From a virus (lineage: Duplodnaviria > Caudoviricetes), in IMG/VR virus record IMGVR_UViG_3300028581_000010: a stretch of DNA of 64,000 nucleotides; one strand, written 5' to 3'. The position numbers and the translations under genes were made by a program. Positions 3,854-17,639 of this stretch are shown here, piece after piece (within the stretch, counting starts at the first letter, position 1; each line of letters opens with the position of its first letter). The notes below the pieces were generated by a model. The model was not told the DNA's origin, did not search any database, and worked only from the letters and a program-made list of their open reading frames with translations.

Positions 3854-5557
3854 ATGTTTGACCATGCTGATATTGAAAAGGCTGCAGCCCAGCTGTTTTC
3901 AAAGAAAACTGCCAAAGCTACATTCCTGGCGCGGCAGCTGATGTTGTCTACGCTGCCTGCGTCGTATTTTGTTGAGAATTATTTGTATGACAACGAGGGG
4001 CGTCTCCAGAGTCTGGAAGCGTTCCCTATGCTGAAGCAGGTTTATGACAACATGCCCCAGAAGTTGGTGCTGAAGTGCAGTCGTAAAACACTTAAGTCTA
4101 CGCTGATCAGCAATTTGATTTGTCTCAATTTGGTCAGATGGAACTATTATAAAATGATGTACGTGGGCCCCCAGGAGCTTACTGTGAAATATTTCTCGAG
4201 TAACTATTTACCCCCACGATTTGAAAGCCCGCGAGTCAAGAGACTGCTGGTTCAAGGGTGGGAAAAGAATGATGTCTTTGAAAAGATTCTCGGCGATACT
4301 AGGAGCAGCGTACTTTTTAGATACGTGAAAGATGATGCGACACGAACTCGTGGCCCCGCCATTGACTGTGTTGTGTACGATGAGGTTCAGGACATATTCT
4401 ATGACCAGATACAGATCGTACAGGAAACCATGGCGATGTCTCCGTTTAAACGTGAAATATTTGCAGGTACTCCGCTCGATACTACTAACACACTCACAAG
4501 GATCTGGAAACAGTCCAATCAGCTTGAGTGGATGATGCGGTGCAGTTGCAAACACTGGAACTCCCTCACCGAGGGAAATGAGCCGCTGCTGATGATTCAG
4601 CCCCACGGGCTTAGCTGCTCTAAATGTCTAAAGAAATTGAACTCCAGAGAGGGTGAGTGGGTTGCCACCAACCCCTCGGGCCACCTTCTGACAGGCTACC
4701 ATTTGGCACAGCCTATTCTACCACACTACAATGAGAGTGAGAAGGAATGGAAGGAAATCTACGATAAGGTGCATAGCGGTAGCAAGGATCTCAAGACAAT
4801 CATGAATGAGACCTTCGGGTTGACCTACGACATAGGCACCAAGCCGATTACCGAAGAAGAATTGCGCAAGCTATGTGTGCTTGGGCCTGTAGAGACCGGC
4901 ACAGACAAGCTTGCCATATGGACCAAGAACAAATCTAAATATAAGATCTACACTCTTGGTGTCGACTGGGGCGTATCTATGCACCAGTCAAGAACTGTCG
5001 TAACGGCAGGGGCGTTGCGCAATGACGGCGTCTACGAGGTCTACTTCTCTAAAATTTTCAAGGGATTTGATCATGAGGCGCATATTAAACAGATAGCTGA
5101 GTTGGCCAACAAGACAAAGTCTTATTGTGTTGCTGACTCGGGTCCCGACCCTATTCGGGGCATTAGTTTGTGCGAGCAGACCAGTCCGACAAGGTCTCAG
5201 CTCGCAGCGTATCGCAGGTCCAAGGTGATTCAATACACGGACCTGGGTGATTATGACTGGAGGCAGAACCGCTGGGTGCTGCACAGGTCGGACGTAATCT
5301 CTCTGGTTATGCGGCAACTTAAAGCCGGCAAGATTATCTTTCCTCAGTGGGACGACATGTCTGAATACATGCAGGACGTCCTCAACATCTATATCGAGGT
5401 CAAGGATGGCCTGTATGGGCAGGAACTAGTGTATGACCATCACGCCAAGCAGCCAGACGACGCTATGCACAGTCTTGTGTTCGCAGTCTGTGCGGCTTAT
5501 ATGGCTGCTGGTGATGCCTGCCTACTAGGGTCCAGCTCGTCCGCCAAGGAATTCTAA
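3854..5557 (+). CDS. terL: Terminase large subunit (GpA-like)
   Basis: ATPase region LVLKCSRKTLKST ... TRTRG ... VVYDEVQD, Zn-ribbon (CSCKHW...CSKC), nuclease motifs LGVDWG and PDDAMHS. Confidence 0.85.
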   Translation: MFDHADIEKAAAQLFSKKTAKATFLARQLMLSTLPASYFVENYLYDNEGRLQSLEAFPMLKQVYDNMPQKLVLKCSRKTLKSTLISNLICLNLVRWNYYKMMYVGPQELTVKYFSSNYLPPRFESPRVKRLLVQGWEKNDVFEKILGDTRSSVLFRYVKDDATRTRGPAIDCVVYDEVQDIFYDQIQIVQETMAMSPFKREIFAGTPLDTTNTLTRIWKQSNQLEWMMRCSCKHWNSLTEGNEPLLMIQPHGLSCSKCLKKLNSREGEWVATNPSGHLLTGYHLAQPILPHYNESEKEWKEIYDKVHSGSKDLKTIMNETFGLTYDIGTKPITEEELRKLCVLGPVETGTDKLAIWTKNKSKYKIYTLGVDWGVSMHQSRTVVTAGALRNDGVYEVYFSKIFKGFDHEAHIKQIAELANKTKSYCVADSGPDPIRGISLCEQTSPTRSQLAAYRRSKVIQYTDLGDYDWRQNRWVLHRSDVISLVMRQLKAGKIIFPQWDDMSEYMQDVLNIYIEVKDGLYGQELVYDHHAKQPDDAMHSLVFAVCAAYMAAGDACLLGSSSSAKEF

Positions 5558-13630: not shown

Positions 13631-13762
13631 AAGTGTAGTATGAGCGCGGCAGGATTTGAACCTGCATGACTAGCGACTGTTAGTGAATCCCAATATATAG
13701 CTAATACTATATACCCGTCTTTGTCTTATTATTTAGCGTCTTTACATTCCGCCACGCCGCTC
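13631..13762 (-). ncRNA. tRNA-Leu-like RNA (132 nt) with an expanded anticodon domain
   Basis: Bulged acceptor GAGCGGCG/CGCGCTC, Leu-type D-arm GCG-GAATGTAAAGA-CGC, T-arm GCAGG-TTCAAAT-CCTGC; anticodon loop replaced by about 42 nt. Confidence 0.7.
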
Positions 13763-13911: not shown

Positions 13912-14023
13912 GTTGACCAAGATTAAAAGGTCCTGTTTACCCACGACAGGACAGGCTTCGGCTCCTTTCGGATAATGGCGCTATTTCCGCCTTACGCCTT
14001 GTCAGCAGGAGCCTAGGCTCCTG
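13912..14023 (-). ncRNA. Candidate structured RNA C, preceded by an 18-bp perfect palindrome
   Basis: GGCG-GAAATAG-CGCC, TCC-GAAA-GGA, GTCCTGT/ACAGGAC, closing TGAC/GTCA; palindrome CAGGAGCCTAGGCTCCTG at 14006-14023. Confidence 0.55.
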
Positions 14024-14047
14024 AGATTCTTACAAACATAAACTGAT

Positions 14048-14467
14048 GAAACACCTCGATTTGACATACCTATACACCCGGAAGCGCCATAAGAGATTAC
14101 TCCGACCACTGGTGGCCGGTTGTATAACTCACACCTGCGTACAGGTGTACTTTGCAACTGGCGCAGTGTTACCTACGCCAGCTCTTTAAGCTTAGCTATG
14201 GACTTTAAATGAGCCTTCCTTACTTATACCTTGCAACCATAACGGATATGAGCCTTACTACCTTGCGAACTTGAGCCTTCAGCCTTGAGACATAGCACTC
14301 TGATGAGTGATATACCATAGGTTTGATACACGCTGAGAAAGCATGTTAGGTTTACAATTCCATGTAAGTTTCATATTGTCGATTATGAGTTCGCCAGATG
14401 AAAGCCACAAGGGCCTCCTCTAGTCTTTTCTCTAACTGATTACGGATATGTCAAATCGAACTGTTTC
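14048..14467 (-). ncRNA. Candidate large RNA D (420 nt) with an AAG-repeat loop
   Basis: 13-bp perfect terminal stem TCGATTTGACATA/TATGTCAAATCGA extended by GAAACA/TGTTTC; several internal hairpins; 90-nt loop containing 10 AAG triplets. Confidence 0.7.
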
Positions 14468-14474
14468 AAATTGT

Positions 14475-14606
14475 GCAGGGCTATGTCCCTGCTGGGAGGT
14501 CTGTCGGCCTCATCCAAGGGGTTCTCTCCCCCTGTCAACTCTGGTATTAGCAGGTCTTGAGTTTTCCCTGTTTTAAACTGAGAACGACTACATGCCTGAT
14601 CAGTTT
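14475..14606 (-). ncRNA. Candidate structured RNA E, downstream of tRNA-Leu(TAG)
   Basis: AAACTGA/TCAGTTT, CAGG/CCTG, GGGG/CCCC, GAGG/CCTC, GCAGGG/CCCTGC; possible AACTC/GAGTT pseudoknot. Confidence 0.45.
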
Positions 14607-14613
14607 GAAAGTC

Positions 14614-14701
14614 TGCGCGAGGCGGGACTCGAACCCGCATGCTACTGTTATTTCGCGTCCGCCTCTAAAACGGAATTGTCTACCAATTTCAACACCCGCG
14701 C
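14614..14701 (-). tRNA. tRNA-Leu(TAG)
   Basis: Class II cloverleaf, loop TTTAGAG. Confidence 0.92.
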
Positions 14702-15391
14702 GTTTAAACTTATACCATAACTCCTACACCATTTTCTAACTGCGTTATCAGAAACTCCGAAGGTTTTCCCTATCTGCACAAAAGATGCCGTACGTATGAG
14801 CCGTTGCAATTCGTCTTTCTCCGGGCGCACAACTTTGCGAAAGCTTGGTTTTGGTTTAGTTCTCCAGTGCGGATCTCCTTTTATTTTCTCCTTTTTAGTC
14901 CTTGTCGGCTTGGGAGGCATTTTCTGTTCGCGTCTGTCAACCAGCCTACGCCTAGTCTCCATAGCATGACAGTTAGGGCAAAGAAGCTGTAAGTTCTCTA
15001 GTCGGTTATCGAAGTGGTCAGAATTTATATGATCCAACTCCAAAATAGCGGGAGCACCTTGCCAGTCAGTTAAGCCGCATAGTTCGCATTCTTGCTTTTT
15101 GAACCCTTCCTTAATAAGCCTCTTTTTAATGTAGTTGCTATTGCATGGTGAGTTGGCCACCAGATATTTCTCTATAGGCTGCTTAGGTGGGAAAGTTTTA
15201 CCCTTATTCCAAGCTTTGCCAGTAAAGTGAGTGGTCGGCAAGTCATAAGCTTTAGCAACTTTTGCAATATAGCTTTGGGCGCCTGTCCGAGAAGATACTT
15301 CTAATTTTCGACATACCTCTGCCCACGAGCGGCACTGTTCGACAATAGGCCCCAATAATTGCTTTGTGTATTTGGTTCTTAGCATACGCAT
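14648..15391 (-). CDS. Free-standing HNH endonuclease; C-terminus reads into tRNA-Leu
   Basis: CELCG...ELDHINSDHFDNRLENLQLLCPNCH and a C-terminal HTH (FGVSDNAVRKW); start 15391 or 15385 behind TTGACT-N18-TAAGAT. Confidence 0.88.
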   Translation of the reverse strand: MRMLRTKYTKQLLGPIVEQCRSWAEVCRKLEVSSRTGAQSYIAKVAKAYDLPTTHFTGKAWNKGKTFPPKQPIEKYLVANSPCNSNYIKKRLIKEGFKKQECELCGLTDWQGAPAILELDHINSDHFDNRLENLQLLCPNCHAMETRRRLVDRREQKMPPKPTRTKKEKIKGDPHWRTKPKPSFRKVVRPEKDELQRLIRTASFVQIGKTFGVSDNAVRKWCRSYGISLNARVLKLVDNSVLEADAK

Positions 15392-15437
15392 ATATCTTAA
15401 GGCAAGTGCGTATGCCAAGTCAACTAGATATGTAAAG

Positions 15438-15613
15438 TTTTCCTACGAGTGGGATATGATCCCACACTCCGCGCATGTACCGGTGAACGCGGGTGCTATT
15501 TATCGGACTCGACCACTTCGGAAGCGATCCGTCGTGCGCCCAATGCCTCGCCCTGTGTGTCTAGAAACACAGCAGTTGCCCATATTAATTTTGGGTTACA
15601 CTATCGTAGAAAA
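15438..15613 (-). ncRNA. Candidate structured RNA F
   Basis: Closing stem TTTTCTACGA/TCGTAGGAAAA; internal CCCA/TGGG, TGTGT/ACACA, GTGGG/CCCAC. Confidence 0.5.
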
Positions 15614-15621
15614 GTTAAAGA

Positions 15622-15655
15622 GATGGGGACGCCGTGGTTTTGCGGCGCCCCCATC
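15622..15655 (-). terminator. Probable intrinsic terminator downstream of tmRNA
   Basis: GATGGGG-GCGCCG/CGGCGT-CCCCATC hairpin followed by TCTTTAACTTTT. Confidence 0.55.
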
Positions 15656-15851
15656 CTGATGTTACCAGGCCAACTTTTTGTGGACAGGATGCCAAGCCTG
15701 CTTTACGAGATTCATCGAACAAGGTGATTTAGGCCTGTTCGATGCACTCACCACCCCCGCAGAAAAACGGCCCACACCCTCAAGCGCCACTCAACCTCCA
15801 GGCCTAGGAAGGAGGTATGGTTGTGACTCTGTTTTGTAATGTGGGACCAAA

Positions 15852-16271
15852 TGGTGGAGGTAGCGGGAGTCGAACCCGCGTGTTCAATACTTCTCTAACA
15901 CCTCTACGTGCGTAGTTTGATATTATTTTCGACTGTGGTCTGCTATCAAACAAACGGTGCCACAGCTTAGGCAGACCCGTCTGCCAGGGTGCGGATTACC
16001 GCCATCTTTTACCACGATTGACGCCGAGCGCTTTTCTTCACTCAGCCAGGTTACGTGACATCCTGAGTTCGATGACTGTTACAGTCCGCTTACGCGGCGA
16101 GCAGTTCGCGATCAACGCTCCCGAAGGAGGCGATCATCGCGTCAGCTTCTGCAACCGTCATTGCTTGATCCATAGGATTAGCATTTAGTTTTTGTTAGCT
16201 TTCAAGGTGCCCCGCTAACGAACCCACACGCAGTGCTTCAATACATATTGAGTCGAAGCCAGTATACCCCC
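15852..16271 (-). ncRNA. ssrA: tmRNA (420 nt)
   Basis: 5' GGGGGTA, 3' T-arm GCGGG-TTCGACT-CCCGC then TACCTCCACCA (G3.U70 pair); tag frame 16182-16090 = ANPMDQAMTVAEADAMIASFGSVDRELLAA*. Confidence 0.95.
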
Positions 16272-16322
16272 GAAAATGTGTGCGTGGTGCACTGTTTTAA
16301 TTGTACACCACGCACGAAAACG

Positions 16323-16868
16323 CTACAACTCCAAAAGTGGCGTGGTCGCATTGACCGTCTCGAGGATCGAGTCGATCAGGTGTGGCTCGCGCCGGAAGTT
16401 TGTGACTTTTTGATCCCGGACTTGCGGATCAAAGTAGCGACGAACCTTCACGGTTGCAGACCCTCCAGTCGATGTGGGCACGGTCTTGTCTTTCAGGTTC
16501 CTGTCGTTCAGGAGACCCCAAGCGAGCTGCTCATGGTTGGCAAGATCCCGCCGGCGCAACACCCAAGCGGCGATCGTCTTCTCGACTGTTCGTGATGGCT
16601 CGATTTCAATCGTAACCTTTGTCTCCAGATTTGTCTTTTGGATACGCAAGGACAGCTCTTCGATCTTTGAGAGCTTGTCATGGATGGCTTGGAGCCAGCC
16701 TTCCACGGTTTTGCGCTGAGTCACCTCATCTGTGTAAACAGGTGCCTCGTTGTCCAGATCAGCCGCATGCGCGTTGATCTTTGCTTTGAGCTCCTCGATG
16801 TCTGCAAGGAGCAACTTCCGCTGCTTCATTGCCTGAATTAACGTCAGGCTCGCTTTGTTCTCGGTCAT
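16323..16868 (-). CDS. DIP1984/DUF6847-like coiled-coil protein
   Basis: Pattern L.QAMKQRK.L...I..L...I / RIQKTN..T.V / RRRDL / VRRYFD / ID..LETVNATT.L matches the family as I recall it. Confidence 0.65.
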   Translation of the reverse strand: MTENKASLTLIQAMKQRKLLLADIEELKAKINAHAADLDNEAPVYTDEVTQRKTVEGWLQAIHDKLSKIEELSLRIQKTNLETKVTIEIEPSRTVEKTIAAWVLRRRDLANHEQLAWGLLNDRNLKDKTVPTSTGGSATVKVRRYFDPQVRDQKVTNFRREPHLIDSILETVNATTPLLEL

Positions 16869-17171: not shown

Positions 17172-17639
17172 TCACTGTGGAAGCTGTTTTTGTACCTCTT
17201 TGGAAAGGAGCTGGCCTGGTATATTTCCACCGGACATTTCCTTGGCGAGCTTCATCACATCGCCCATCTGTTTGCGTGAAGTAGCCTCGAGCTTCGATAT
17301 TGCCTGAGAGACGATTGTCTCGATCTCTCCCTCGGTTGGGACCGGAGGCATGTAGGCAGCGAGCATAACCTTCTCCATTCCCTCCTTGGCGGCCCGTGCC
17401 GTTTCTCCGACTTTTACATAGGAGTCGATGGAGTCCTGTCTCTTCTTGCACTCCTTGGCGACCACCTGTAAAAACTCGGTCTGGTCGAGCTCGTGGCGCA
17501 GTTCGATAGCCTTGTTTACCATCGCGCTCTTGAGCATGCGCAATACGTCGCGCTTCATACGGTCGCCAGTCATCATGGCAACCTTGATATCCTCGTCGAT
17601 TTTTTGTGAGGGTAGCATATTGTTAGCAGGGTTGAACAA
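17172..17639 (-). CDS. GatB/YqeY domain protein
   Basis: IKVAM...RDVLRMLKSA...KECKKRQDSI..Y...YMP...EIETIV...KQMGDVMK. Confidence 0.85.
   Translation of the reverse strand: MFNPANNMLPSQKIDEDIKVAMMTGDRMKRDVLRMLKSAMVNKAIELRHELDQTEFLQVVAKECKKRQDSIDSYVKVGETARAAKEGMEKVMLAAYMPPVPTEGEIETIVSQAISKLEATSRKQMGDVMKLAKEMSGGNIPGQLLSKEVQKQLPQ

Follow-up and report, generated by a model that had tools for sequence, protein, structure and literature searches.

An AAG-array RNA from the tRNA/tmRNA island of a lake-water jumbo phage as a candidate partner of a DIP1984-like protein

The 64,000-nt stretch of viral DNA analysed here (IMG/VR record IMGVR_UViG_3300028581_000010, hereafter the window) comes from an uncultured lake-water jumbo phage of roughly 200 kb that is known from metagenomes. 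Within an island of tRNA and transfer-messenger RNA (tmRNA) genes we identified a 422-nt closed non-coding RNA, termed RNA D, at 14047-14468 on the minus strand, delimited by its end pairing and fold. Its proposed partner is a DIP1984-like protein of 181 aa encoded at 16323-16868 on the same strand and recognised through weak profile matches and a fold match; as the initial annotation had placed it, the gene lies about 1.9 kb upstream, its stop codon being 1855 nt before the RNA D 5' end. Judged from sequence comparison, RNA D is probably a trans-acting structured minus-strand RNA of the tRNA/tmRNA island, belonging to a family that travels with DIP1984-like genes, and comparison across genomes supports its pairing with the gene described above. 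Neither Rfam nor the literature searched describes the RNA or the protein-RNA pair.

The first hint of this association came from raw blastn and nhmmer matches of RNA D, which were located almost exclusively in sense orientation, some hundreds of bases past the end of DIP1984-like genes, and always ran through RNA D nucleotides 187-264, that is, through its AAG array. Homologues of the 181-aa protein formed 91 clusters, and 80 distinct IMG/VR loci encoding DIP1984-like genes were then fetched. An AAG-array RNA was present in 75 of these 80 loci, invariably on the strand of the gene: within 400 nt downstream in 54, at 400-1000 nt in 12, beyond 1 kb in 3 and just upstream in 6. In bacterial metagenome bins, the array RNA was found beside 12 of 12 close homologues, so that the co-occurrence of end-paired AAG-repeat RNAs with DIP1984/DUF6847 genes, which the initial annotation had suggested examining, was positive in both samples. 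Even homologues at 24-27% identity, from Synergistaceae bins, keep a two-block 7-nt array, made of CAAG/CACG units. Among loci found from the RNA side, the gene was present in all three that could be tested, and an RNA-first scan with exact 14-mers returned mostly chance matches, with real ones in 4 of 80 loci. The few other matches of RNA D among the loci were chance matches to a 17-mer searched earlier and were rejected.

The position of the RNA right after the stop codon in 54 of the 80 loci could also be explained if the family RNA were a cis-acting 3' element of the DIP1984-like mRNA, serving stability, autoregulation or processing, with RNA D as a displaced remnant. We consider this very unlikely, as the RNA precedes the gene in 6 loci and stands 1-3.5 kb away in 3 displaced ones; in one of these, L079, four tRNA genes lie in an interval of 3.5 kb, which resembles the layout of the window. 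Moreover, in the clade to which the window belongs gene and RNA are parted by a separate tmRNA gene and a hairpin resembling a terminator, and the closed fold and the array are still kept.

The RNA family was defined from 56 loci, and a profile was built from 52 RNAs. Its parts follow one another in the order P1 closing helix, P2, variable centre, array, hairpin and 3' stem (CCUnnn-AAGUU / AACUU-nnnAGG); the motifs flanking P2 are AGAGAUAAAAAC (5') and GGCUUCC (3'). The array consensus reads AAGGCUC AAGGnUn AAGnnUn AAGGnAGn AAGGUUn...C AAGGnnGn AAGGnGn AAGGnAGn AAGG, which amounts to about nine AAG units divided by a spacer into two blocks. Distances between units cluster sharply at 7 nt (184 cases) and 8 nt (112 cases), AAG is nearly invariant, the linker bases are free to vary and no helix is predicted. 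Canonical pairs occupy 82% of the 7-bp P1 versus 48% with shuffled partners, 87% of P2 versus 73.5%, and 88% of the 3' stem versus 69.5%, and cells changed on both sides number 160, 61 and 107, respectively. All three helices covary, which identifies the family as structured RNA and not as a repeat in DNA. A feature acting at the DNA level, such as iterons or another protein-binding repeat array, or a small mobile element with terminal inverted repeats, might be suspected from the 22-nt inverted repeat of RNA D and the direct repeats of TGAGCCTT on the plus strand. It seems extremely improbable given that G.U pairs in the helices far exceed A.C (103 versus 40), that the orientation is always that of the gene, with tRNA-like modules embedded in the same sense, and that neither the window nor related genomes have more than one copy of the element.

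A T-loop module is embedded in 36 of the 56 family RNAs; 25 carry a tRNA that ARAGORN can call, at least 3 modules are circularly permuted, and the unit of gene and array RNA often resides within tRNA clusters. The permuted modules, inside the RNAs at L097:3827-4178, L091:4510-4882 and L145:4527-4893, run from the T-arm and 3' acceptor strand through a capping loop to the 5' acceptor strand and D-arm; such a module cannot be a chargeable tRNA. Another family RNA holds a full tRNA with a UUA anticodon, of the ochre-suppressor type (L071:3570-3645). In a further locus, a Pistol ribozyme match that exceeds the gathering score (41.8 bits; L069:3361-3416) follows the DIP1984-like gene at a distance of about 760 nt.

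Searched with the 52-RNA profile (nhmmer), the window gave a single match at 14210-14290 (minus strand, E 4.4e-15), and covariance model R1 likewise gave one, at 14202-14294 (56.9 bits, E 6e-13), each being the sole significant match in the 128 kb searched. Like the family, RNA D has about nine units 7-8 nt apart in two blocks, is closed by a P1 helix (21-23 bp in the clade versus 7 bp in the family) and is encoded on the strand of the gene, downstream of it. Just inside P1 lies AGAGAAAAGAC (14423-14433, minus), which is similar to the family 5' motif, and just before the P1 3' strand lies GCUUCC (14080-14085, minus), a word of the family 3' motif. Both were recognised by eye at places equivalent to the P2-flanking motifs; profile search leaves the first and the models leave both unaligned, and no P2 pairing was found in RNA D. 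Nor was the family 3' stem found there, the covariance model deleting positions 86-178, where RNA D has three different hairpins; a T-loop or tRNA-like module is absent as well, and among 50,697 phage records blastn found no match to RNA D. By these comparisons RNA D is a divergent, displaced and long-stemmed member of an uncatalogued RNA family, one that lacks the tRNA-like module.

RNA D itself is a real folded non-coding RNA. Its P1 terminal helix is formed by a 5' strand at 14445-14468 and a 3' strand at 14047-14070 (minus; inverted repeat and pair count), in which 23 of 24 positions are paired on the minus strand, two of them as G.U, so the closing helix of about 20 bp described in the initial annotation holds. 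The arms 14047-14068 and 14447-14468 constitute the top inverted repeat of the island, with 91% complementarity, and since the two G.U pairs would turn into A.C mismatches if the plus strand were read, a minus-strand RNA is favoured. The folding energy is -144.2 kcal/mol (z -5.65) on the minus and -123.3 kcal/mol (z -4.25) on the plus strand. An Rfam scan of the region, at the gathering threshold and at E<=10, detected tmRNA and tRNAs only and left RNA D unmatched. The sequence of RNA D is unchanged in four other assemblies, and because the contigs covering the region in four further lake runs are all identical, they supply no natural variants for a pairing test. About 95 nt past RNA D, a 7-bp hairpin followed by CUUUUAAUCU (13920-13952, minus), read from the sequence, may be a terminator; a consensus terminator scan did not list it, its loop being 9 nt.

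Exact counts and coordinates agree with the initial description of a 90-nt loop holding 10 AAG triplets inside a GCTATG/CATAGC stem. The clamp, read from sequence and fold, consists of GCUAUG at 14291-14296 and CAUAGC at 14195-14200 (5' and 3' arms, minus), and the stretch 14201-14290 between them contains 10 AAG, of which 7 AAGG, 4 AAGGCT and 3 AAGGCTCA were counted; two further AAG stand just outside it. Successive triplets are spaced 7, 7, 8, 8, 24, 7, 4, 4 and 12 nt apart, and nhmmer, the covariance model and the counts delimit an array at 14205-14290 (minus) of five units 7-8 nt apart, a 24-nt spacer and three to four more units. Across the window, AAG averages 1.73 per 90 nt with a maximum of 10, a density reached at only one other site, within a coding open reading frame (ORF). 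The loop had also been called poorly pairing; this stood insofar as the array has no conserved helix, but folding energy leaves it not much less paired than the remainder of the RNA, with single-sequence base-pair probabilities of 0.62 versus 0.68. Similarly, the enrichment of AAAC/AAC repeats attributed to the 5' region is present but slight (6 AAC versus about 2.7 expected), and the three hairpins 3' of the array recur in both minimum free energy and centroid structures, at 14158-14181, 14132-14147 and 14102-14119 (minus).

The history of RNA D can be followed among 37 relatives defined through the terminase and five whole related genomes, in which blastn and nhmmer detected no sequence homologue of RNA D. 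In L077 and L092 it took the array profile and the terminal helix to recognise related RNAs, and a MAFFT alignment of RNA D with these is unreliable outside the array. Synteny around the island is conserved in the clade, most relatives having only the tmRNA between the two flanking genes, and four relatives that are 93-100% complete are without the DIP1984-like gene and without any array RNA. Where the gene is present, in the two lineages L025/L077 and L036/L092, the order is gene, tmRNA, tRNA(s) and closed RNA, as in the window. Their closed RNAs measure 357 nt (L092) and 347 nt (L077), with 23 of 24 and 22 of 24 pairs in the terminal helix, respectively, and these helices show compensatory changes relative to RNA D around a common GUUCG...CGAAC core. 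Joint presence in two lineages and joint absence in four relatives indicate that gene and RNA were gained or lost together. In both RNAs the AAG array is broken by a hairpin. Of the three RNAs, RNA D has the richest array, and its middle 3' hairpin, CACCUGUACGCAGGUG, recurs verbatim in the RNA of L077. The scaffold has been largely replaced and the array kept, which points to the array as the functional core.

The closest RNA gene to the DIP1984-like gene in the window is the phage tmRNA (15852-16271, minus; Rfam RF00023, 93 bits, and ARAGORN), 51 nt past the stop codon and before RNA D, and the two are likewise adjacent in L025 and L036. It is therefore conceivable that the protein here has its true partner in the adjacent tmRNA, or in a tRNA, with RNA D as an independent relic or a separate RNA, and the tRNA-like modules in many family RNAs would suit this idea. 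It appears quite unlikely, however, because most relatives carry the tmRNA without the gene, all three gene-bearing lineages carry a closed array RNA like RNA D, and in 75 of the 80 other loci the neighbour of the gene is the array RNA and no tmRNA is there.

Several observations weigh against RNA D being a trans-acting partner of the DIP1984-like protein. The 1.86 kb between the gene and RNA D holds the tmRNA, a gene for an HNH endonuclease (14648-15418, minus) and tRNA-Leu(UAG), which the HNH gene overlaps (14614-14701, minus), and the DIP1984-like gene has its own terminator-like hairpin. Adjacency alone fits a regulatory 3' element in the main family too. Alignment of RNA D to the family is confined to the array, with 93 of 178 positions deleted by the covariance model, and by single-sequence thermodynamics the array is not clearly single-stranded. 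On the other hand, the array and closed fold have been kept despite 1.9 kb of separation, which argues for action in trans.

The assignment of the 181-aa protein depends on structure more than on sequence. NF038048 matched it over its full length at E 1.4e-6 and 28.6 bits (cut-off 70) and PF20935 at 19.9 bits (cut-off 27), so that neither curated cut-off is reached; a precomputed PF20935 match is present on many of its homologues. An AlphaFold2 model with a predicted local distance difference test (pLDDT) score of 93.7 consists of four long helices and two small beta-hairpins. With this model, the top Foldseek match was PDB 3KDQ (DIP1984), at probability 1.0, E 1e-4 and template modelling (TM) scores of 0.55/0.64 over 175 columns, and the next match had E 0.14. 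On the predicted model, 3KDQ is thus the sole clear structural relative. Weak matches to TasH-tigRNA complexes (E 0.14) were dismissed as noise from coiled coils. Searched against the PDB as a sequence profile, the protein gave no match, the DIP1984 fold having been reached through structure search. Compared with the DIP1984 family (NF038048, Pfam DUF6847, 3KDQ), the protein therefore has the same predicted fold over its full length but sequence scores below the cut-offs, and its subfamily, with 660 clusters at 50% identity, is distinct and mostly phage-borne. Many Lys/Arg as well as Tyr45, Trp58 and Trp102 are conserved in homologues, a pattern compatible with nucleic-acid binding. The DIP1984 structure, 3KDQ, was solved in 2009; our literature search found no description of a function for the family and no paper linking DIP1984, DUF6847 or "septicolysin" annotations to RNA.

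We propose that the 181-aa helical protein and RNA D may form one particle, in which the array would offer multiple docking sites, each 7-8-nt unit making one contact with the protein and spanning about the width of a 20-kDa protomer. Such triplet reading might resemble that by TRAP, HutP or CsrA. More speculatively, the particle could act on or mimic tRNA-like molecules during infection, with possible roles in quality control, as a decoy or in the recruitment of tRNA-handling enzymes. A tRNA-related role is our best guess because most family RNAs embed a tRNA-like module and the clade has tmRNA and tRNAs between gene and RNA, and the same two observations support the link to tRNA/tmRNA biology drawn in the initial annotation. 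The ring-like DIP1984 oligomer, the TRAP-like wrapping and the anti-defence role that were also raised there stay conjectural by comparison.

The initial annotation had also offered a CsrB-like sponge as its alternative. In general form, RNA D would be a sponge or decoy for a host factor (CsrA- or Hfq-like, or the anti-Shine-Dalgarno of 30S) acting without any phage protein, and its linkage to the gene would reflect shared regulation only. Repeated AAGG units do look like partial Shine-Dalgarno or CsrA-type motifs, yet conservation centres on AAG, with variation at the fourth G and with CAAG/CACG units in distant relatives; GGA is absent from hairpin loops, and Rfam gave no match to CsrB, RsmY or RsmZ. 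Host factors would also hardly account for so tight a same-strand linkage to a single protein family in phages that differ widely. The CsrB-like version is weakened further in that the RNA tracks a phage-encoded protein, and we regard a host-factor sponge in any form as unlikely.

A wider proposal, which we advance tentatively, is that DIP1984-like proteins and periodic-array RNAs constitute a widespread undescribed ribonucleoprotein class in phages and bacteria, with a closed RNA scaffold, often bearing a tRNA mimic, whose roughly nine triplets at 7-8-nt intervals would be read by an oligomer of the helical protein. The module of the present clade brackets its own tmRNA, which would suggest takeover or protection of tRNA/tmRNA-dependent translation. 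If the pair does bind, many uncultured phages would carry a new kind of RNA-protein particle, frequently encoded within clusters of tRNA genes and frequently equipped with its own tRNA mimic. A small protein that has hundreds of sequence clusters but no known function would gain a candidate partner in a covarying RNA with a ruler-like row of triplets, and the module would account for a recurrent class of "empty" intergenic gaps.

The surroundings of RNA D show other features. In the window, a large terminase is encoded at 3854-5557 and minus-strand genes, including a head maturation protease, extend over 20-64 kb; the RNA island at about 9.7-17 kb carries tRNA-Met, Asn, Leu, Glu and Leu(UAG) together with the tmRNA, all on the minus strand. 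The tag encoded by the tmRNA is about 30 residues long (...APSVAEADA...LLAA) and conserved in the clade (L001, L003, L005, L007, L013, L017, L019, L029, L035 and L036), its unusual length suggesting a role beyond marking proteins for degradation. From the tmRNA to the HNH gene runs a 430-nt ORF-poor gap (15419-15851, minus) with a strong 14-bp GC-rich hairpin at 15621-15656, and this gap matched neither Rfam nor the array model. The last 18 codons of the HNH gene overlap the 5' 54 nt of tRNA-Leu(UAG), and upstream of the gene, at 15748-15760 and 15484-15526, are look-alikes of the tRNA 5' end (11/13) and of the anticodon/variable region; HNH gene and look-alikes together fit a homing cassette that split and patched the tRNA gene. 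At 13640-13760 (minus), a tRNA-like T-arm, GCAGGUUCAAAUCCUGC, with acceptor-like ends was called by neither ARAGORN nor Rfam; it could represent a tRNA that has degenerated or been interrupted. The DIP1984-like gene is immediately preceded by a YqeY/GatB-C-like gene, of a tRNA-binding domain type (17172-17639, minus), which is absent from all 37 relatives.

Among known systems, ROOL (RF03087) and GOLLD (RF01998) are, like RNA D, large ornate non-coding RNAs of phages or prophages with unknown function, often near tRNA genes. RNA D is smaller, and it differs by its periodic single-motif array and a dedicated neighbouring protein gene; neither covariance model matched it at the gathering threshold or at E<=10, so identity with either family, named in the initial annotation as a possible outcome, did not materialise. 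Bacterial Y RNAs (YrlA type), which pair with Ro60/Rsr (PMC4201824), likewise have paired ends and are encoded beside their protein partner, and they share the tRNA-like module with 36 of the 56 family RNAs, though not with RNA D. However, the partner proposed here has the predicted DIP1984 helical fold and the AAG array is absent from Y RNAs; no Ro60/TROVE domain was found in the 18 neighbouring ORFs scanned, and no Y RNA match in Rfam. In CsrB/RsmZ with CsrA/RsmE, a small protein is similarly faced with one RNA in which a short motif is repeated many times. Here the motif is AAG(G) at 7-8 nt in a row without conserved helix rather than GGA in hairpin loops, and the candidate protein is unrelated to CsrA and encoded beside the RNA. 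TRAP reads 11 x G/UAG, and HutP reads UAG with 4-nt spacers. Both recognise a periodic triplet with free spacers, as the 181-aa protein might, and the 7-nt period of HutP is the period found here; the protein fold and the triplet are different, and the likeness would be an analogy of mechanism only.

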